A DNA stretch of 63,321 bases, filler included, from Collodictyon triciliatum (taxonomy: Eukaryota), in assembly GCA_043381765.1 (NCBI GenBank). It is 5 parts of 5 records of this genome, joined end to end, with 100 filler letters (N's around TTAATTAATTAA, not from the genome) between each part and the next. Parts side by side here need not be neighbours in the genome. Positions count along the whole stretch, not along the records: positions 1 to 18,425 come from JBHJMP010001370.1; 4 more parts are not named here. One strand, given 5' to 3'. This document shows positions 426 to 54,283 of the stretch, in pieces (within the stretch, counting starts at the first letter, position 1; each line of letters begins with the position of its first letter). A model generated the notes under the pieces. It did not search any database. It saw nothing but the letters and a program-made list of their open reading frames with translations, and was not told where the DNA came from. The translations under genes were made by a program, and so were the position numbers.

Positions 426-3400
426 TCATTGTGAAAAGGGGTCAAAAGGTCGTCTATTCTTCAGATTTTTCATCTTGACCAATGTTCGCTTGATTTCGCC
501 ACTTTTGAATAAAGGAATCACAAAAGCGATTGATGTAAAATAAAGCAGCCAGATTGAGTTCATTCCAATAAGCAGAGCTGTAATCCACAATTTCGAGTCA
601 AAAAGAGTCGACATGAGCGAAAGGAAGAAGGACAAAAAAATAATGTAGAGACTGGACAACTCCATTTGACTTTCGATTTTCGAGTGGTAAGGCTTATACT
701 CTTTTTGCATCCAAATTGAGCTCTAACAGTTTGTGCTTGATTTAATATTAATTTTCAAAAAATTATCTCATGTATTGCACCATATAAATAAATATTTAAT
801 CGACCTGAATAACGATGATGAGAAGCACGAAAAAAACCGCTGGGCTTGTGTATGGAATGACACTGAGCACAAACGAAAAAGCGATGCGGCGTGCGATTAT
901 GACAAACTCCCAATACTTGAAGGTCTATATAACATAAATCTCATAAATAGTTCAATTGATAATGGAAAAGAAAGAATATTGAATCACATACCTCTTTGTA
1001 TGGCAAGTAAAGGAATCCATATCGCGCTCCTGGTTCGTATCCAGGTCTTTCTGCCATGATTCTCACTTTCCACAATACAAAAGCAGGCAGACCGACCAAG
1101 AAAAGAACGAAAACTGGAACAGATATTGCAAGCAGTTTTTGATATTCATCCGAGGCTGGGCTGCATTGAATCCAGGGCTTGAAATTCAAATACCATTTAT
1201 TCACACCTTCGTCATAAACGGTGCATCCAAAAACACCAAACACCTCTCTTGCAACTGAGTAGTATATAAAAAACAGAAGATTCAATGCGATGAAAACAGC
1301 CTGCCAAAATAATAATAATAATTTAGTAATACTAAAGATGAAGCTGAAACAAATATAAAGATTTTACAATTAGATGTATTTTTCCTCCTTACTTTGTTCT
1401 GCTTGTGTCCATGTCCAAAATAGTACGTGGCTGAGCCAACAATGATAAAGATTGGTATTCTTGCAAAACTGAACACCAGAGAAGCAAACACACCGTCTAC
1501 TCCAAGGACACAGGAAAGGTTGGGGAATTGAATTGAGCTAATAGACGATGAAACATCAATAAAGCTGTTTGCATCTTCTGAAAGAACAAGCCCACTAGAC
1601 ACAATCGACAGTGTTTGCATGTGGAACATTATTATCCTGAGTTTCGCTGAATGAAATATTCTGATTAATATGGGAAGAATCAAAGTGAAAATAATTTAGT
1701 GACATTTACCTGATTTTGATGTCTCTGTGAAATACAGATAGCAAATGAACATAAAGAATCCAACCGAACCAAGAACCAGAGTAGAATAAATTGTTCCTTT
1801 ATTACATTTCACACATGACCTCCCTTGATTTCCGTATCCATTCTGACATTTTGAGCAGGCATAACCTTCATAACCCTCCTGACACAGGTTTATAATTTCG
1901 ACCGTCGTATTTGAATTCGAAATTTTCTCTGGAATCGACACATCACATGACTCGCGACGTGGACATGGCAGTATTGATTTCACAGAGGTGATGCTTGGTG
2001 AAGCATGACAGAATTTCAAGGACGTTCCATCAAGGCAATCACACCCTCTTGGGCATTGAACACAATTATTTCCAAAGCCGAAATATCCAGGTAAGCATTT
2101 ACAAAATTCAAAGCCGTAGTATTCTGGATTCAAGTCAACCTCCAACTCAGTTAGACCAGATTTCGAAATAATTGAAGGACAAAGGTAGCGTTTCGTTTCG
2201 TCTTGCAGATTGAAACTTGTTGTGAAATTCATGAAATCAGGAAGAAAATTGGCGGTTCCGTGATTCATCGATGTTTTATTCAATCCCAGATACTCAAGCT
2301 TTGAAAAACCTATGTATGATTCAGGAATGCTTCCAACAATCGGATTTCCAGTGAGGTCAAGGGAAGTCCAGCTCAACAGATTTGTAAGTTCATCAAGATA
2401 AGTGATGTTGTTGTTTTTAATACTTAATGTTTTTATGTTAACAACAAAGTCAAAAATCCAATGATTCAATGCTCCATAGAGTTGGTTGTCATCAAGCAAA
2501 AGGTTTTCATAAAAATAATCGATATTTCCTGAAGCTGGTGAGATGAAAACACCAATGTCTCCTGAAAATGAGTTGTTTCTCAGATCAATGGTGACTAGAT
2601 TCAGCAAATTCCAGAATGAATCAGGCATACTTCCAGAAAATTTATTGTGGGATAAAACGAGTGATTTCAACTCTAGTAATTCCTGAAAATAGGTTGGGAC
2701 TATGCCGTTCATTTTGTTCCAAGACAAGTCGATGTATTTAATTGAAGGCAATGACCAGTAATTGGGAATAGAGCCACTGACTTGGTTTTCGCTCACATCT
2801 AGTCTTGTCAGGTTATTCAGATTGAACATCGGTAATGTGCCTGTCAACTTGTTTCGGAACAATACTATTTCCTGGATGCTTTCGCAATACTTGAAATCTG
2901 GAACCTCTCCCTCCAACTGATTATCATAAACAGAAAAAATCTCCAGTTTACGCATGTTTGAGAAGTTTGAAATTGCACCTAAAATTACCCATTAATATGA
3001 TAGGAAATGTAAAATCAAAAGAAATAGAAAGGTAAAATAAGTAAAAATCACCATCCAATCTGTTTCTATCAAGGTAAATTATTTCTACATTTGGAATTCC
3101 GTTAAAATTTGGAATGGTTCCTATAATAAAAAGTTAGCTTCTTTTTATATTACATGAAAATAATAATTAACTTACCATTCAATTGATTGTTGTAAAGATA
3201 TATTTCTAAAACATTTGGAATTCCACTGAAGTTTGGAACGGTTCCTATTATATAAAGTTAGTCAGTTTATCAATATTACATGAAAATAATAATTGAAACT
3301 TACCATTCAATTGATTGTTGTAAAGATAAGTTATTTCAAGATTTGGAATCCCACTGAAGTTTGGAACGGTTCCTGTAATGTAAAGTTTGCTTCTTTTTTA

Positions 3401-5187
3401 TATTGCATGAAAATAAACCAAAAAATTACCATTCAATTGATTGCCGGAAAGAGAAATTATTTCAACATTTGGAATTCCACTGAATTTTGGAACTGTTCCT
3501 GTAATATAAGGTTAGTTTATTTTTTCTACTACATGAAAATAATAATTAAAAATTACCAGTCAATTGATTGCTGAAAAGATATATTCCTAAAACATTTGGA
3601 ATCCCACTGAAGTTTGGAACGGTTCCTGTGCTATAAAGTTAGCTTCTTTTTTATATTATACATGGAAATAATAATTAAAAATTACCAGTCAATTGATTGC
3701 TGAAAAGATAAATTATTTCAACATTTGGAATTCCACTGAAGTTTGGAACTGTTCCTGTAATAAAAAGTTAGCTTCGCATCAATAATACATGAAATAATAA
3801 TTAAAACTACCATTCAAAAGATTGCTGAAAAGCCAAATTATTTCAACATTTGGAATTCCACTGAAGTTAGGAACTGTTCCTGTAATATAAGGTTAGTTTA
3901 TTTTTTCTACCACATGATAATAATAATTAAAACTTACCAGTTAATTGATTTCTGTAAAGATATGTCTCTAAAACATTTGGAATCCCACAGAAGTTTGGAA
4001 CAGTTCCTGTTGTAAAAAAGTTGGTACTTCTATTCCATCATACTTAATAAATAAATTAAACCAAACCATGAACTTTGCAGCTATAAATTGCAAGAATCTG
4101 AATATTGGGCAACGCTGAGAAATCAGGCAGAGTTCCTGAAATGGAAAAATCATTAGAATTCAGAATAAATCTTAAAGGAAATTACTTGATACCTGTAATT
4201 TTTTCACTTCCACCAATCCACAATCTCTTCAGCGACTGTATTTCAGAAAAATCTGGTATTGTTCCTTCCAATTCATTCCCATTAATATCAAGATGTTCAA
4301 TTTTCGGCATTCCTTGAAAGTCTGGAATCGTTCCGGTAAATCGATTTTTATTGAGATTCAGATACGTAATACTTGGGAGATTAAAGTCTGGAAGATTTCC
4401 GTAAATGAAGTTGTGGCTCATGTCCAAAGAATCCAATAATTGGAGCTTCTCAAAAATCGTCGAGGCAGCTTCAATGTTACCGTTAAGATTGTTTTCAGAC
4501 ATTCTGATTTCCACGATAGGGCATGTGTTTCTCTATAAATATAAAGGAAAATATGTTAAAAATGAAATCAAAAGAGATTATTATTTCAAGAAATTACCTT
4601 ATAGTCTTCATCCGAGCAGCTCTGATGACACGATATTCCATACCAATCACAAATCGGAATACTTTCATTCTTCCATCCAGAGTTCCGAAACCAATTATCG
4701 CCGCCAAGTGAATCGTAAAGTTGGACAAGCAGTTCGTATTGGGTCCCAGCATTTCCATCTGCCACATTTCGGTTCTCTTCGTTCTCTAACCCCCGTTCTC
4801 TGTTTCTACTTCGTTTTGGCGAATGAATTTCTTTGTAGAAATCGACCTTACTAGATGTTAATTTTCTTCCATAATTCCATTCAGCACCGTGTCCATTTTC
4901 TAGCGAGTATCCTCCATCTTTGCAGCCATCCATCAACCCTGAAAAGCTATCTTCACTCTCTTTTAACAAAGGACAGTTCTCATCGTAGAAGCTCAACAGA
5001 ATTTGGAACGCATCTTCGACATTCATGGAAAGCAACTCATCTCTTGAATACTGGCATCTGTTTTCATCATTAGAGTCGAAAGTATATTTTATAAATATTC
5101 ATAAATCAAAATATACCTTTGACGTGGGTGAATTGAGTATACCGATGAAACAGCGAAAACGGTGGAAATGAAGGCAACCAAAAGCAT
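426..5187 (-). CDS. Cell-surface LRR receptor-like protein: signal peptide, LRR N-cap, many extracellular-type LRRs, Cys-rich segment and C-terminal multi-pass (~9 TM) domain
   Basis: Hand-spliced in frame with GT-AG introns. Exon 1 (5187-5117) encodes MLLVAFISTVFAVSSVYS (signal peptide). N-cap LVQLYDSLGGDNW..SGW...PICDWYGISC; LRRs of the LxLxxNxLxGxIP type; CLPGYFG and CQEGYEGYACSKCQNGY Cys motifs; TM domain with YGFLYLPYK..KYWEFVIIARR and KPY motifs; stop at 426-428. Confidence 0.9.
3052..4135 (-). repeat. Tandem array of nine exon+intron units (~124-129 bp), each a 69-nt single-LRR exon
   Basis: Exons at 3052-3120, 3176-3244, 3304-3372, 3430-3498, 3557-3625, 3686-3754, 3811-3879, 3938-4006 and 4067-4135. 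All have YAG|GAAC...TG|GT boundaries and are phase 1-1. The 55-60 nt introns resemble each other. Confidence 0.95.
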
Positions 5188-18425: not shown

Positions 18426-18525
18426 NNNNNNNNNNNNNNNNNNNNNNNNNNNNNNNNNNNNNNNNNNNNTTAATTAATTAANNNNNNNNNNNNNNNNNNN
18501 NNNNNNNNNNNNNNNNNNNNNNNNN
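18426..18525. other. Artificial contig linker (N44-TTAATTAATTAA-N44)
   Basis: 100-bp block with a 12-mer giving stops in all six frames. The same design recurs at 36943-37042, 55433-55532 and 60353-60452. Confidence 0.95.
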
Positions 18526-18712: not shown

Positions 18713-36207
<17,495 letters not shown>

Positions 36208-36660: not shown

Positions 36661-39232
36661 TCAAGAATGAAAGGGGATAACCGTAGAGCTTAAGAATGTG
36701 GAGGAAGACTCGTCCTTTGCTGATGGTGTGTGCTAATATTCTTCGTTGTAATTCTTTGTTGGTTTTTTATTGGTTTTTTTATTGGTTTTTTATTGGTTTT
36801 TTTATTGGTTTTTTTATTGGTTTTTTTATTGGTTTTTTATTGGTTTTTTTATTGGTTTTTTTATTGGTTTTTTATTGGTTTTTTATTGGTTTTTTATTGG
36901 TTTTTTATTGGTTTTTTTATTGGTTTTTTATTGGTTTTTTATNNNNNNNNNNNNNNNNNNNNNNNNNNNNNNNNNNNNNNNNNNNNTTAATTAATTAANN
37001 NNNNNNNNNNNNNNNNNNNNNNNNNNNNNNNNNNNNNNNNNNATGTATGTATGTATGTATGTATGTATGTATGTATGTATGTATGTATGTATGTGTGAAG
37101 GGGGTAGGGGGTAGAGGGGGGGGGGTTGAATATTACCTCTTTCCGTGTTAATGGGAATCCCAGCGGGTGAATCTTTTGGCTGTGATGATTTTCCGTCGCT
37201 ACATTTTAGAGTTAGACCCGACATCAGGTACTTCATACATGCAACTATTGGCTGATGAAATCTTGATTTTGGGAAAATTGGAAGCATTATATATTCATAC
37301 ATCGGATGAGATAATTGGATAGCACTGGGTCTCCTATTTTGTGTTTGTAGGTTGATGTTTGCTAAAGACGGATGTCTCCCTTCAAATAAAGATACACTGC
37401 GCTGATGAAGGTTTCTCTCTGAGGGTTTTGGTCTTTGATAAACATCAAAAGCCTTTTCATGAAGACCTTCACGAACTAAGCTTTGGAGAGCCGAAGGAAG
37501 AGTCTATAATTTTGATCATTTTACTTTTGTGATATGATTTGGTATGATGTGATATGGTATGATGTGATGTGTTGTGTTGTGTTGTGATTTCTTTATTGGT
37601 AGTCTCAATTTTAATACCAATTTTGCTTCAGATAATACCCAAATTTTAAGAATTTTGATATTCCTTTGAAATATAAAATAGGGCAGTTGTACGTTATGGC
37701 CGTTATGATGAGAGTCCGCAGATCGTAGCCAAAGGGTTGGAGTTCGATTAACCATGCGATATATTTGAAGATAAGGTATTTGCTTCCTACATATTTGTGT
37801 GTTCTCAAAGTTTTTGAAATGTATTTTTTCTGTATTAACAAAAAAAAAAAAAAAAAAGGTCTTATGCAGGCATGCTAAGGTTTACAAATGCTATGTTTCA
37901 AAAATACTGTGTGGACAATCAATAAAACATAGAAATCACACATTAGAGTTGTTTTCGTGAGCAACTCGTGCACAGGTATTTCCTCATGTCCATTAGAAAG
38001 TATCAGTTTGTCGGCGATGCTTTTTACATCGCTAATTATTAAAGAAGATTTGGATAAGTAAAATATTTCTCACAAGTTTTGAAACTTATTATATGATTAA
38101 GGGCATAGTTTTACTCTTAAATAATGTCCAAATGAAATTGGTGTATACCATTCATTTGGAAGAGCTATTAACACATTTCTCATAAATGATCCAATACTTG
38201 AAGTTGGCTCATAGGGGAAAAATGTGATGATATACCATTTGTCGTACTCAAAAACTAGCTGGATATCTGTTTCAATCCAATTACCCTGATACAAACAAAA
38301 CCATTTGATACATTCTTAGTGATCGAGGCAAACCCGCAATATGTGAAGCATAGTAAATTTACTTTAACATATTTTTATGGAGCCCATTTTTATGTTTACA
38401 TCCCAAGTCTTCGAATAGAATAAAGAGGAAAAATGGTTTCATACCAAATGTATTTTACATGAAATGGGCTATATTCACGAAAAAAATGCTTACGTTTGAG
38501 GTGTCAGCTTTCCTTTTTTCGAGCCCCCTGCTACACGTGTGTATAATTTAAATATTCACGGTTGCAATTATGATTATGATTATGATTATGATTATGATTA
38601 TGATTATGATTATGATTATGATTATGATTATGATTATGATTATTACGGAGAAAGTGGGCTGTCGTTAGCAGACAACGTAATTGGCGTATTTATAATTGGA
38701 GGTTCTTCCTGGAGAATCTAAAGTATACATTTATAATCTTTTGGCTTCTTAAACAAGAATATATAAAACTCACCCCAGGGTAACCTGAGACATGATCAAC
38801 AGGAGACATAGGATTCACAATCCCTTCGTCAAGATCTTCTGTATGTACTAGGGGATTGGATGTTTTATCTTCACCCTAGATGTAAGCGCTCGATTTTCAA
38901 GAGTTATTTTGGAAAGAGAAATAAAAAGAAAAGAAAAGAAAAGAAAAGAAAAGAAAAGAAAAGAAAAGAAAAAGAAAAGAAAAAGAAAAAGAAAATGAAA
39001 ATGAAAGGAAAGAAAAAGAAAAAGAAAAAGAAAAAGCAACATAAAACAAATATGCGGTTGTAGCATGGAGCCCTACACACCTCTTTTCTGGTGCAGAAAT
39101 CATTCGGGTTTCCATCTCTTCGTACTTCATCTGTCGTATCCACTAACCTTTCCTCCATAAACTCACTCTATGTCTGACGAATGCAGATCTTGTAAATGAT
39201 CGAAACGGGTTAAAACAAATGACTTCGCGCAT
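36661..39232 (-). CDS. Hypothetical multi-exon protein with no recognised domain
   Basis: Phase-compatible GT-AG exon chain from ~38830 to TGA at 36661-36663: EDLDEGIVNP..., ILQEEPPII..., GNWIETDIQLVFEYDKWY..., DVKSIADKLIL..., KQIPYLQIYR..., TLPSALQSL...NTER, AKDESS...FHS*. The 5' exons could not be joined unambiguously. Confidence 0.6.
36759..36942. repeat. (T6-7ATTGG)n 11-12 bp minisatellite in an intron
   Basis: Directly visible; runs into the linker gap. Confidence 0.95.
38568..38642. repeat. (TATGAT)n hexamer microsatellite in an intron
   Basis: Directly visible. Confidence 0.95.
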
Positions 39233-48361: not shown

Positions 48362-50682
48362 ATGCAGCCCCCAAGAAGCGACGAAACAATTCTGCGACTA
48401 GCCGGCCTTGGAAAGAGCAACTGCGGCTACTGCCAGTCCGAAGGAAGCTTCTCGCTAAGTAAGTGACTCAGATTTCTTATTTATATATTATAGATCGGAC
48501 ACTCAGTACGACACTTTCCATCCATCATAAATTGGAAAATAAGTAAGGAGATAAAATNNNNNNNNNNNNNNNNNNNNNNNNNNNNNNNNNNNNNNNNNNN
48601 NNNNNNNNNNNNNNNNNNNNNNNNNNNNNNNNNNNNNNNNNNNNNNNNNNNNNNNNNNNNNNNNNNNNNNNNNNNNNNNNNNNNNNNNNNNNNNNNNNNN
48701 NNNNNNNNNNNNNNNNNNNNNNNNNNNNNNNNNNNNNNNNNNNNNNNNNNNNNNNNNNNNNNNNNNNNNNNNNNNNNNNNNNNNNNNNNNNNNNNNNNNN
48801 NNNNNNNNNNNNNNNNNNNNNNNNNNNNNNNNNNNNNNNNNTATTTGTTTTATTATTTGTTTTATTATTTGTTTTATTATTTGTTTTATTATTTGTTTTG
48901 TTTTGCTCATGCAGATATGCTTTTAGACAACTATTCCATTTAGAGGGAATTGCACAAGTGTGAAAGGAACATTTGCGTTACTGATTGAAAAATAGATTCT
49001 GATGGACCGAGGTTTTCGGCGTAGTGGAAAGCTTGTCTACAAACTTCTTCCTGGAAGCTGTTGTGCTGCATATACAATCCGCTTGGACGCTTTTTCTTTT
49101 CAAATGACCAAAAGTCAGAAGAAAGTTCTTCGGCATCTCTCTGTATATCTAAAAAAGTATCCTGTTGCGTCGGAAAGAAATCAATCCCAATCTGCTTCGT
49201 CAGAATCAAAGTCAGAATCGTCTGAACCATCATCTTCAATGCCTTTCGAGTCCAAGACCCCCGTATCGACCAGAAAGAAGCCCATTAGCCACGAGGTTGG
49301 CCATGACGATTCACTTTCACCTCCACGTTCTCTTTTAGTATCAGCCACTAATCAAATCGATTTTGTCGAGGCGCGCAATAATTTCTTTGCCGATCTAATG
49401 AATGACCCTTCCAACAAACGCAAATTTACGGTACTCACGGATATTATGATGACCTACCATAATTGTGACATATTTCTTTTGGTATCATTGATGTTTAAAA
49501 CATATGAACGATTGAAGAAGAATGTACACAATTTGCTTCAAAAAATCAATATCTAACCAAGTACGACATCAAACCTTAGATGACTATGAATCATGCATCT
49601 GTAACCGAAGAAAAGTTCCAACTGTACAAAAAGTATCAAATGTTAGTTCACAAAGACCCAGAGACCAAGTTAAATCAAACTTCCTTCAAAAACTTTTTGG
49701 TTGACACTCTCCTCTTGGTAAATATATTACATATACCAATCTTGTGTATTTATTTTCCCTCTGTTTTATCCGTAACTTATTGATAAAAAAAAACTTCTTT
49801 TTTTTTTTTACGTATTGCAACTGGAGTTGCTAATCACTTGACATTTCCCCCCAATTTTCATATACTAGAGAGAACCATCCGGTTCTGATATTATGTACGG
49901 AACCCAACACATGGAGTATCGAATCGACGAGAAACTAATCGCTGTTAGTGTTGTTGATGTCACACCTGGCGTGTTGTCCTCAGTATATTTCTTTTATGAC
50001 CCTGATTATGATTTTCTATCACTGGGGAAAATATCCGCTCTGTTTGACCTCGAGTGGATAAGAAACGTTAACAAGAAACTACCTGATTTTCGCTACTATT
50101 ACCTGGGTATATTTGTAAATATTGAAGCCAATACAAATGCGTATTTTATTATACTGCACTCAAACTTACGTGAAGGCTTTCTCTTCTTTTTTTTTTCTTT
50201 TCCCGTCTTTCATATGTACTCTGTCGGGTGCGTTGAAGGATATTATATCGCCAGCTGCCCAAAGATGAGATACAAAGGAGAGTACAAGCCATCCGATCTT
50301 CTATGTCCTAGAACATACAAGTGGATTCCATTAGAGTCTTGCGTGCAACAAATAGAACAGAATCCTACTCTTCCTTTGTGTTCCGAGCCTTCTCCTACCT
50401 TGAATGTTCGAGATATTGCAGCGCGTCTCCGATTTCTTGTTAGGTCTACTCCCATGGGAATGTCGGTATGTCTTTAATCGTGATTAAGTTCATTTGTCAT
50501 AATTTCAATAAACTATATCAAAAGTATACACCCTGGCTGCTATTTTGATGATAATAAGAAAGCGATAAATGCACTGGCAGGTCTTTCCAGGCGATGTCCA
50601 AGAGAGGATTACCGAATTTTGTAAGGAAACCATCGAACATGTTGGCCCCGAATTGTGCTTACGCTCCTGGATAAGGTTGTGA
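48362..50682 (+). CDS. ATE1: Arginyl-tRNA--protein transferase
   Basis: N-terminal CGYC; [101 protein letters not shown]. One exon probably lies in the gap at 48557-48841. Confidence 0.93.
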
Positions 50683-51263: not shown

Positions 51264-52149
51264 ATGACTGTAAGTATCTAGCTAGACACCTCTACGAACA
51301 ATATCAACCCCTGAACCTCCGTTCCTTCTATATGGCCCGTGGTGGGGGAAAGTTAACACGCCACGATAGCGCCCGAGAGAACACCGAGAAAAGTCATCCA
51401 CAACCCCCGTGTCCCACTCTAGTAGGCTGTTGAAACTGTAGGAATCAAGATTTTTGCAAAATCAGTCCCTCTCGGGAGGGAGGTGAATAAATTTGCTACT
51501 GGTATCGACGCCACAACTGGATGTTGGCTTTAAGCGAGACTCAGGCCGTCAGATAGGAAAATATTCACCAATTCTCACCAACTTTGGTGTCTGGGGTGCC
51601 GATCATGTCCCTGATTTACAGAACACGTCCACAACAGCCTCCTACCAACACTCACTACACTCCAATGTCGCTCGCACAACATTTTTCCGCATAATTCCCT
51701 CAGCACCTGACTGATTACCATTCTCTTTCATTACGCAGTACCCACCTACTGATCTGCTCCACCCTTCTGAGTCCGCTGAGAAGAGAAAGCACAAGCTTAA
51801 GCGCCTCATCCCTTCCCCCAACAGCTACTTCCTTGATGTCCGCTGCAATGGCTGCAACGTGATGTAAGAGTGCAGTCCCATGTTTTTAACAACAAGGCCA
51901 CCCTTCCCGGCAAGCTGAACTCTCTGAGACCCCTACCTTTTCTACTCTTAACTCAATCACCCCGAACAACCTGAAACTAACTGTTGCTCCCTTTTTCTTT
52001 TTTTTTTTTTCATTTTGTTCAGCACCACCGTCTTCAGCCACGCTTCCACAGTTGTTGTCTGCAGCTCATGCTCCAACATCATCGCCACCCCGACCGGAGG
52101 TGTGGCCAAGCTGTCCGAGGGCTGCCAGTACCGCCGCAAGGCCGAATAA
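51264..52149 (+). CDS. RPS27: 40S ribosomal protein S27 (eS27)
   Basis: Exons 51264-51269 (ATG ACT|GTAAGT), 51739-51863 and 52023-52149 give [85 protein letters not shown]. Confidence 0.95.
51424..51640 (+). ncRNA. Candidate structured RNA element inside RPS27 intron 1
   Basis: Nested stems: AGGCTGTTG/CAACAGCCT, CTGTA(GG)AATCA/TGATTTACAG, GATTTT/AAAATC, TCCCTC/GAGGGA, GGTGAATA/TATTCACC, TATCGACG/CGTC(A)GATA and CACCA/TGGTG. No family recognised. Confidence 0.5.
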
Positions 52150-52536
52150 ACGCCTCTGCCGTGCTGTACAACCCACACCCGTCAAACACACGACTTGCCG
52201 CTGTCAACCGCCTCCTCCCTCCGCCAAATTCTCTATTCGTAACGCTGGAGGTGGATTCTAGGACTGGGCCACTGCGAGTAACTTTGTATGGAGCTGTGGT
52301 TTCATTTCATGGAAAGGATGCAGAGGTGGAGGCAGGCGACCGGCCGGGCCCGACACGCACTGGGCCGCCCCGCAAACAGGCGGGGACGCACCCACATGCA
52401 AGAGCGGGGTGAACCGGGCAGAGGCACACGAGGCCGCAACCTTGGCTGCAGGAGAGGAGGGAAAGAGGAAGGAAGGGAGGGAGAATAACAGAGAGGGAGG
52501 GCGTGGATCCGGTGGCCCAGGCAGACAGGGGGGGGA

Positions 52537-53311
52537 TTACAGAAGCAGGCAGAGGGGCTTCTTTGTCGGGGGCTTGTCCTGCTTGCCGGGGGTGGCCTCG
52601 GCCTTGCGGACCTCGCGGACCAGCTCGCTGAAGGCCTCGTCGACGTTGAGGGGCAGCTTTGCGGAGGTCTCGAAGAAGGGGCACTTGAACTTCTTTGCGA
52701 GCTCCTTGCCCTCCTCGGTGGAGACCTTGCGCTCGTTGGCCAGATCGACCTTGTTGCCCACAAGCACCATGGGGATGGTGTCGGCGTCCTTGCACCGCAG
52801 GATCTTTTCGCGCAGCGACGCAACCTCCTCGTACGAGCTGCGGCTGGTGATGCTGTAGCACATCAGGAAGCCCTTGCCCTCGCGCCACCACTGCGTCGTC
52901 GGGAGGGGGCGGTTAGGACGGGGGAGGGGGAGAGGGAGAGGGAGAGGGAGAGGGAGGGGTACGGTACCTGGTCCTGGATCGTCTTGTACTCCTCCTGCCC
53001 TGCCGTGTCCAGGATGTCGAGCACGGTCGAGACGCCGTCGATGGTCACCTGCTTGCGGTAGCTGTCCTCTGCAGGAGGGGGTGTGGGTGAGTGGGTGAGT
53101 GGGTGAGTGGGAACGGGGCGGAATGACTCACCGATGGTGGGGTCGTACTCGGTCACAAAGTGCTTCGAGACGTACTGGATGGTCAGGGCGGACTTGCCGA
53201 CGCCGCCTGCTCCGACAACAACCTGCGTGCGGCAGAGGCCCGTGTCAGCGAGTGGGAGGGGGGAGGAGGGAGGGTGTGGCTGCGTACGAGTTTGTTCTGC
53301 TGCTGGCTCAT
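52537..53311 (-). CDS. RAS: Ras-family small GTPase
   Basis: Four coding exons encode [22 protein letters not shown], effector loop YDPTIEDSYRK, DTAGQEE, NKVD, ETSAK and CaaX CLLL. Confidence 0.95.
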
Positions 53312-54283
53312 GCTGCCTCTGGCGGTTCTGGGTCTGTGTGTGGCTGCGTGTGTGGCTGTGTGTGTGTCTCACCGCCTGCGGGGGCCTTTGCTGCTCTCTG
53401 GTGCGGCGGACATATGGAGTGGGCGGGTGAGTGTGGCGATTACCAGACACGGGTGCTGGGCTGTGCTTTGGGGGACGAGGGGGGAGGGGGAGGGTCTCGT
53501 TGGCCGCCAAGCCTTGTCTGCTTTTGGTATGAGTGTGTGTGTCTGCGTGTGTTTCGGTCGTGCGGGCTGGATGGCCAGGCAGGTCGAGAGGAAGAGGACG
53601 GAATGGACTAAGGTTAAGCGCACCCTCTCCTTCTCTTTTCGTCTCGAGACATGCTCGGGGGCAGCGAAAGGAAGGCGGAAATAGGGACTGTGGAGCAAGG
53701 CTTGTAGGAGTTGGTGCAAGGATCATCATAAAAATAAAATTGGTGGGGTAAATGAGTAAAGAGAGGCCCAGTGCTGGCTGTCCTTGCAGAGGGCTTTGAG
53801 TTCATAGAGAGTGGCCGGGATCATGTTTTGTGGTTGTTTCTGACTCTTTCGCTTCTTCTTTTGATTCACTCGGGGTGGGAGGGTCTCTTCGACGCCCAAA
53901 TACCGGTACCCAAGGAAGCAGCTTGAGTACAGGGTGGCAGATCAAACGAAAGGAAAAGGAAAGCAAGTCGAAGTCATGATTCAGGGGGTTTGTCATGTCG
54001 GTCCCTCACAGATATTTCATGACGTTCGAGTTGGGTTTGGAGGTCTGGGTGAGGAAAAGCGGAAGATTGAGAAAGAAAAAGATGTTCTGGCAAAGAAGTA
54101 AGATTGAGAAGAGGGCGCTGGTCGAAGGAACGATCAGCGCGCTCTGTCCTAGTTTGTGGCAGCCAGACTTCTTGCCTCTCGGTCTCACCCCCCCCCGATC
54201 ATTGAATGGGTCACGAGTTACGATGAGTCTCTCTCTCGTGCTTGGCTGTGCCGCCCCACTTCTTCGGCCCTGGCATGTGTCTC

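Follow-up and report, generated by a model that had tools for sequence, protein, structure and literature searches.

Gene organization and the cassette exon array

The stretch analysed here (the window) comprises 63,321 nucleotides (nt) from Collodictyon triciliatum (GenBank assembly GCA_043381765.1), with five genomic parts joined end to end by filler. A gene of 17 exons was modelled on its minus strand, with an intact frame of 1246 codons running from the ATG at nt 5185-5187 to the stop codon at nt 426-428. Exons were joined at canonical sites, spliced contigs being used for the 3' part, and all 16 introns were of the GT..AG type, 55 to 92 nt in length. The predicted protein possessed, in this order, a signal peptide-like hydrophobic N-terminus, an LRRNT_2 cap, about 24 leucine-rich repeats (LRRs) of 22 to 24 residues, a Cys-rich stalk, and a multi-pass membrane domain. 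Within this gene, nt 3052-4135 contained nine exons, each 69 nt long, of phase 1-1 and encoding a single 23-residue LRR, which together corresponded to residues 291-498 of the protein. Eight of these cassette exons were located by a regular-expression (regex) scan for AG-69 nt-GT, whereas the ninth (nt 4067-4135, donor GTTTGG) was read directly. Their coordinates were confirmed, and their translations were identical, letter for letter, to the nine peptides listed in the initial annotation. The cassette exons and the tandem repeat in which they lie were as follows.

nt 4067-4135, minus strand: cassette exon E1 (GTLPDFSALPNIQILAIYSCKVH), an old unit with about 50% nt identity to the other cassettes
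nt 3938-4006, minus strand: cassette exon E2 (regex scan, translation)
nt 3811-3879, minus strand: cassette exon E3 (regex scan, translation)
nt 3686-3754, minus strand: cassette exon E4, spliced to E5 in an RNA-type contig
nt 3557-3625, minus strand: cassette exon E5, junction with E4 seen in an RNA-type contig
nt 3430-3498, minus strand: cassette exon E6 (regex scan, translation)
nt 3304-3372, minus strand: cassette exon E7 (regex scan, translation)
nt 3176-3244, minus strand: cassette exon E8 (regex scan, translation)
nt 3052-3120, minus strand: cassette exon E9 (GTIPNFNGIPNVEIIYLDRNRLD), an older unit with 64-75% nt identity to the other cassettes
nt 3036-4010, minus strand: young tandem repeat of exon plus intron, found by Tandem Repeats Finder (TRF) with a period of 127 nt, 7.7 copies and 80% matches

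Every cassette exon was bounded by AG and GT, started with GA and ended with G, so that a GGA glycine codon was rebuilt at each junction, and the 18 splice sites involved were all intact. Given the symmetric phase 1-1 and the GGA at every junction, any cassette could be removed, repeated or swapped in frame, as had been claimed. A 27-nt degenerate pattern representing the scaffold half of the repeat had 7 matches, compared with none in 100 shuffles; because of this result and the TRF repeat, the array is far beyond chance. The scaffold half had been described as almost invariant; whole-exon comparison adds the qualification that near-identity is confined to E2 to E8 (72-93% nt identity), E1 (about 50%) and E9 (64-75%) being more distant. 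No other cassette exon was found in any frame of the window. Likewise, 0 stretches with the degenerate cassette pattern were found in metagenomes, and a scan of metagenomes for related loci with the cassette alignment gave 301 pattern matches, none of which was confirmed.

Origin of the array

In nt identity matrices, exons E2 to E8 were mutually 72-93% identical and introns I2 to I8 69-95%, which marks these as seven young units, E1 and E9 being older. The introns flanking the array (nt 4136-4192 and 2979-3051) had no evident similarity to I2-I8 when read, with I9 reaching 51-58% by global alignment. TRF also reported a higher-order period of 381 nt (85% matches), and identity between units was highest at a lag of three (0.855 versus 0.78-0.835 at other lags). 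Units U2 and U5 were paired in the whole-unit and intron-only trees (support 82-86), a pair absent from the exon-only tree.

By the proposed mechanism, an LRR flanked by two phase-1 introns would have been copied together with an intron, presumably by unequal crossing-over or replication slippage, and copying would have occurred at least once as a three-unit block, giving the seven young units between two older ones. Every copy would have stayed in frame because the unit is symmetric. The array may in this way have lengthened and retuned one ligand-binding surface over evolutionary time.

Rates of change at concave-face and scaffold codons

Parsimony steps among E2-E8 were counted on three trees, with the x codons of LxxLxLxxN (codons 13, 14, 16, 18, and 19) predefined from the LRR consensus and the introns (33-39 steps over 52 ungapped sites) serving as the reference rate. 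The initial annotation had placed the changes mainly at the x positions, and this was confirmed: the five x codons contained 19-21 of the 29-31 non-synonymous steps (binomial p 2e-6 to 2e-7). Over their 12.6 sites, these steps amount to 2.2-2.7 times the intron rate (conditional binomial p 6e-4; small sample), and the non-synonymous rate of the x codons exceeded both the intron rate and the synonymous rate on all three trees. Scaffold codons 1-11, on the other side of the comparison, showed 2 non-synonymous steps over 25 sites versus 5-7 synonymous steps over 8 sites. In tree-free bounds, their first plus second positions had 1 step over 22 sites (p 2e-4), and their third positions changed at the intron rate (p 0.83); therefore, the constant half is held by protein-level selection and not by gene conversion or homogenisation. 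The hydrophobic and Asn core codons of the variable half changed at 0.36-0.56 of the intron rate. Tree-free lower bounds agreed, though less strongly; on second positions they gave 8 steps over 5 sites for x codons versus 31 over 52 for introns (p 0.018), and 0 over 11 for the scaffold. Thus the contrast of x with scaffold codons suggested in the initial annotation yielded excess replacement at the former and purifying selection on the latter, and, judged from these sequences, the exposed x positions change faster than neutral DNA. After copying, the scaffold half (GTVPNFSGIPN) would have been fixed by purifying selection and the concave-face residues driven apart.

The placement of the x positions on the concave face was supported, for the neighbouring repeats, by an AlphaFold model of exon 13 (23 aligned sequences, predicted local distance difference test (pLDDT) 86.3), which showed strands in a solenoid-type pattern. 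In three of the first four repeats of the same type, the main strand occupied register 14-16, and a second short strand was located at the xGx turn. The variable residues are accordingly predicted to lie in or beside the beta-strand.

Remaining exons and predicted protein

Outside the array, the coding sequence was distributed over eight exons, all on the minus strand.

nt 5117-5187, minus strand: exon 1, with the ATG at nt 5185-5187; signal-peptide-like, hydropathy peak at residues 1-19
nt 4598-5057, minus strand: exon 2, orphan N-terminal region plus LRRNT_2-type cap (Pfam match)
nt 4193-4532, minus strand: exon 3, 340 nt, first four to five LRRs or so, phase 1 at its end (Pfam LRR_4/LRR_1/LRR_8)
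nt 1710-2978, minus strand: exon 13, 1269 nt, about ten more LRRs, Cys-rich stalk and first transmembrane helix (Pfam LRR_1/4/8, weak DUF7630)
nt 1393-1646, minus strand: exon 14, membrane domain; the introns on either side, 1647-1709 and 1301-1392, appear as CT..AC joints in contigs of the RNA type
nt 992-1300, minus strand: exon 15, best-conserved part of the multi-pass domain, with the RYGFLY motif (database search)
nt 805-924, minus strand: exon 16, membrane domain; introns 925-991 and 723-804 seen as joints
nt 426-722, minus strand: coding part of exon 17, stop codon at nt 426-428 (gene model)

The LRRNT_2 domain (PF08263) in exon 2 was matched at E 9.3e-5 with 23.1 bits, above the curated cutoff of 20.7. 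A protein search with exon 2 returned one weak database match covering 23% of the query, the N-terminal region being almost without relatives. LRR_1, LRR_4 and LRR_8 scored above cutoff in exons 3 and 13, where a tandem LxxLxLxxNxLxGxIP pattern was present; the remaining LRRs of the gene reside in these ordinary long exons, in agreement with the initial annotation. The gene probably encodes a receptor-like membrane protein, for which the nine 69-nt exons supply a germline-encoded stretch of the LRR ectodomain. We infer that this predicted receptor would be located at the surface and bind a ligand.

Introns and splicing

The cassette introns were 55-60 nt long and of the GT..AG type, compared with 59-92 nt for the other introns of the gene, and the branch-site word CTAAC occurred upstream of the acceptor in 6 of the 7 homologous cassette introns. 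Such short canonical introns constitute an architecture favouring intron-by-intron removal. Retention would introduce an in-frame stop in all 9 introns flanking cassette exons on both sides.

No RNA run was recorded as containing the stretch; there were 12 matching sequencing runs, with shares of at most 0.12, 11 of them metagenomes (freshwater, subsurface, aquaculture). Four runs with small shares were mapped as contigs onto the window, one of which, X7, was of type "RNA?", a guess. The X7 contigs were 90-99% like the window and showed minus-strand GT..AG joints at nt 723-804, 925-991, 1301-1392, 1647-1709, and 3626-3685. The last is exactly the intron between E4 and E5, with these neighbours joined, and is the sole clean cassette joint (1 of 10 cassette junctions). 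A close relative therefore transcribes and splices the gene as modelled, for one cassette intron and four others. Most likely all nine cassettes are spliced constitutively, their joint inclusion being mostly inferred. No contig spanned the array, and nt 3352-3515 were uncovered in all four runs, which are thus uninformative on absence. For one intron, the X7 contigs contained two different joints, 1301-1392 and 1255-1392. Use of the longer joint shifts the frame into a premature stop and probably reflects either missplicing or regulated formation of an unproductive isoform.

Relatives and the membrane domain

The closest homologues of exon 13 were the EukProt transcripts P0001, P0002, P0244, and P0247, named Diphylleia rotans by cluster look-up and sharing 31-42% identity. 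Compared as transcripts only, they matched the present protein in architecture between the cap and the final membrane helix and shared its 23-residue repeat (GTxPDF...), whereas adjacent LRRs in four full-length paralogs were at most 0.43-0.61 identical, with no young array. Young LRR runs were also rare in the family, a segment of at least 0.87 identity at the repeat lag being seen in 1 of 40 relatives. Because adjacent LRRs are dissimilar in the Diphylleia paralogs and such a run occurs in a single relative, the young array is specific to this gene or lineage. None of 7 pairs of Diphylleia Trinity isoforms differed by internal multiples of 23 residues; the differences were truncations and indels of 5 and 9 residues only. 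Diphylleia rotans was also the best named match of the GDI gene in the window; by these matches, the source is likely to be a diphyllatean (CRuMs) flagellate other than D. rotans.

At E<=1e-3, a search of 1.84 billion proteins with the conserved membrane exon 15 gave only 71 representative clusters. The multi-pass domain (nt 430-1646; relatives P0251-P0318), with its RYGFLY...YWE...RR motif, belongs to a small, mostly protist family and is usually found behind LRR ectodomains, sometimes behind FG-GAP. Among the 40 relatives scanned, LRRs were present in 30, DUF7630 in 7, FG-GAP_2 in 4, and PF06011 "TRP" in 3 (E<=0.001, best 6.4e-7); among 22 short relatives, PF06011 was matched in 10 at E<=0.01 (best 6.6e-7). 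PF06011, which is fungal Flc/Pkd2-like, had no match in the exons of the window itself, and relative P0003 reached 11.4 bits against a cutoff of 28.5. A model of the membrane domain of the short relative P0285 (pLDDT 86.6) gave no match at E<=0.001 in a Foldseek search of the PDB (best 0.19), and with VIA-align wide its best Z was 7.3, to generic helical hairpins. Atlas look-alikes were unnamed protist clusters, one with PF06011 on 12% of its members, which is a lead only. Since the PF06011 similarity is weak and no convincing match was obtained among solved structures, a possible channel-like role of the multi-pass domain is just a lead.

Comparison with known systems

The initial annotation had pointed to single-LRR exon shuffling in brown-algal ROCO genes, and this precedent is real. 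According to PMC3341825 and PMC11378527, each LRR of these genes is encoded in a 72-nt exon, the exons are shuffled and alternatively spliced, and concave sites 14, 16, 18, and 19 are under positive selection. The "type I" arrays of Ectocarpus and kelps resemble the present one in having one LRR per fixed-length exon, symmetric phase and tandem exon duplication. Moreover, the algal exon starts at the Gly of GxxPxxL...LxxLxLxxNxLx, in the same register as the present cassettes, and the selected sites overlap x codons 13, 14, 16, 18, and 19. However, the algal exons encode 24 residues and are described as phase 2 in one paper and as "phase 0" in the other, versus 69 nt and phase 1 here; the algal proteins are cytoplasmic LRR-Roc-COR GTPases, whereas the present one is predicted to be of the secreted or membrane type; the algal genes form large shuffling families with non-coding LRR relics in introns, whereas no second locus was found here in the window and metagenome scans; and alternative splicing of LRR exons is documented in the algae and not here. 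Membership in the ROCO GTPases was ruled out: no Roc or COR domain was matched in the six long frame translations scanned, which cover most of the coding sequence, and the C-terminus is a membrane domain. A Ras/Roc-like open reading frame (ORF) at nt 52863-53729 is separate from the LRR gene, lying 48 kb away along the window.

According to PMC6564038, thousands of Tetrahymena LRR genes contain arrays of phase-2 exons, each exactly 90 nt long, for which unequal crossing-over is held responsible. These share with the present gene tandem units of exon plus intron, constant exon length and a single phase, together with clonal expansion and young arrays detectable at the nt level. They differ in their 30-residue repeats, in the intron length of young genes (about 122-257 nt), and in an association with a LINE-like element, whereas the present case is a single gene with exons of 69 nt, introns of the usual size, and an array in which no transposon was seen.

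Plant-type extracellular LRR receptor-like proteins and kinases likewise possess an LRRNT_2 cap and LRR_1/4/8, and gave hundreds of matches at 25-35% identity. The present protein differs from them in having 23- instead of 24-residue units, no kinase domain, and a Cys-rich stalk and multi-pass domain shared with protist proteins only. Functional analogies are provided by the Dscam exon clusters and the assembly of lamprey variable lymphocyte receptors (VLRs), in which tandem in-frame cassettes encode a binding surface. Unlike in Dscam, there was no sign of mutually exclusive choice. Somatic assembly of the VLR type was ruled out, the germline gene being complete, with splice sites at every cassette and no flanking donor cassettes in the window.

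Among the literature matches listed, no paper on Collodictyon or Diphylleia mentioned LRRs, and we know of no report of such LRR exon arrays in CRuMs. Arrays of single-LRR exons represent a known way of gene evolution, with precedents in brown algae and Tetrahymena. The exon length of 69 nt and phase 1, unlike those of either group, point to convergence on one design.

Alternative explanations

We consider it reasonably probable that, in the course of evolution, tandem exon duplication under diversifying selection expanded and retuned an LRR surface, and the data fit diversification over evolutionary time, not within a cell. Several observations weigh against this account. RNA-type support covers 1 of the 10 cassette junctions and comes from a relative, not from the organism of the window, which is why constitutive inclusion has to be deduced for the rest. 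The test for excess over the neutral rate used seven units, all of them short, and a tree of low resolution (bootstraps 10-86); with first and second positions of the x codons pooled, the tree-free bound gave p 0.065. The unit number may be wrong if the assembly mishandled the repeat. In addition, a DNA contig of run X1 passed from nt 3664 to 3158, 507 nt back or about four units, and another from nt 3766 to 4054 with 34 other letters, a net difference of roughly two units (depth 2-2.6 in both cases), and an X7 contig passed from nt 3749 to 3576 with 24 other letters, showing array units in another order. The contigs with reordered units (depth 2-4, 90% likeness) may represent other strains, paralogs or real variants and are hints only.

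Neutral expansion of the repeat, in which slippage enlarged the array and variation at the exposed positions reflects nothing but a lack of constraint, would be compatible with that p value, with a weak tree on which homoplasy inflates step counts, and with an overall non-synonymous rate in codons 12-23 of just 1.2-1.6 times the intron rate. Such an explanation is nevertheless unlikely, as the predefined x codons exceeded the intron and synonymous rates on every tree, their second positions, where any change is a replacement, were in excess in the tree-free bound as well, and the core codons for hydrophobic residues and Asn in the half containing the x codons were conserved. Rather improbable, too, is regulated cassette splicing, by which cells would skip or choose symmetric LRR exons and obtain many isoforms with different binding faces. 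The uniform 69-nt, phase 1-1 units with a rebuilt GGA would keep any subset in frame, alternative splicing of tandem LRR exons has been reported in Ectocarpus (PMC11378527), and the reordered X7 contig joins an E4-like exon to a non-neighbouring unit. That contig, however, differs from the window sequence and may derive from another gene or strain, whereas the sole clean cassette joint connects neighbours, the cassette introns are of ordinary length for the gene with CTAAC in most of them, and no Diphylleia isoform pair differed by whole LRRs, short-read Trinity assemblies being a weak test. Outside animals, moreover, intron retention is said to predominate over exon skipping (PMC6142364). With the neighbour-to-neighbour joint, the short canonical introns, the isoform pairs and the lack of other cassettes in the sequences searched, the proposal of the initial annotation that skipped or swapped exons give this gene many binding specificities was not borne out.

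It is very improbable that the array, or the number and order of its units, was made or distorted by draft assembly over a 127-nt repeat. The window contains 1914 N in 11 runs, none of the contigs from the four mapped runs crosses the array, and, according to bioRxiv 10.64898/2026.06.11.730069, draft genomes exist for two diphyllateans, these published drafts being derived from amplified single cells and chimera-prone. Against this stand the mutual differences of 7-28% among all seven young units, the intact 18 splice sites and reading frame, the recurrence of array pieces, with 90-99% likeness, among contigs from four runs, each of a different study, and the junction confirmed by a spliced contig. 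A further possibility, which we regard as doubtful, is a hypervariable recognition locus, in which unit number and order would differ between wild strains by ongoing unequal crossing-over, with some cassettes perhaps optional.

Other features of the window

On the minus strand of nt 19903-26559, three long open frames encoded successive segments of the motor of a dynein heavy chain (AAA_6/7/8/9, MT stalk, D6); a dynein heavy chain gene indicates that the organism is flagellated or ciliated. The Ras/Roc-like ORF noted above (nt 52863-53729, minus strand) belongs to an island at nt 52001-54000 with 60% G+C, compared with about 35% in the genome, in which pieces of Ras/Roc-type GTPase are separated by a Pro/Thr/His-rich read-through. 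This island may represent foreign DNA or a gene that is GC-rich and bears introns. At nt 58163-58996, on the minus strand, lay another LRR gene, unrelated to the first; it was RNI-like (LRR_6 type) and not composed of 69-nt exons. Rfam and tRNA scans of the whole window gave no matches.

Four N runs (nt 18426-18525, 36943-37042, 55433-55532, and 60353-60452) had the identical layout of 44 N, 12 bases and 44 N, and three longer ones (nt 29372-29867, 32977-33758, and 48558-48841) were masked or unassembled; none of these lay near the array. Directly adjoining one N run, an 11/23-nt tandem repeat (TTTATTGGTTT, 16.5 copies, 95% matches) occupied nt 36755-36942.

Biological implications

Under the favoured reading, in which tandem exon duplication and diversifying selection shaped the array, the protists building LRR surfaces from symmetric exons of one repeat each would now include a third independent lineage, probably CRuMs. 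The product of this gene would represent an uncharacterised receptor architecture, rare in databases, in which the LRR ectodomain is followed by a Cys-rich stalk and a multi-pass domain. If the locus were hypervariable, it would provide a predatory flagellate with a strain-specific, fast-evolving LRR surface on a channel-like membrane domain, recognising prey, pathogens or self, and would be an independent invention, in the CRuMs lineage, of the scheme proposed for brown algae. Should the array prove polymorphic or alternatively spliced, it would offer a compact, tractable model of receptor diversification. In deep-branching predators, the LRR/multi-pass family is a candidate sensor of prey or of the environment.

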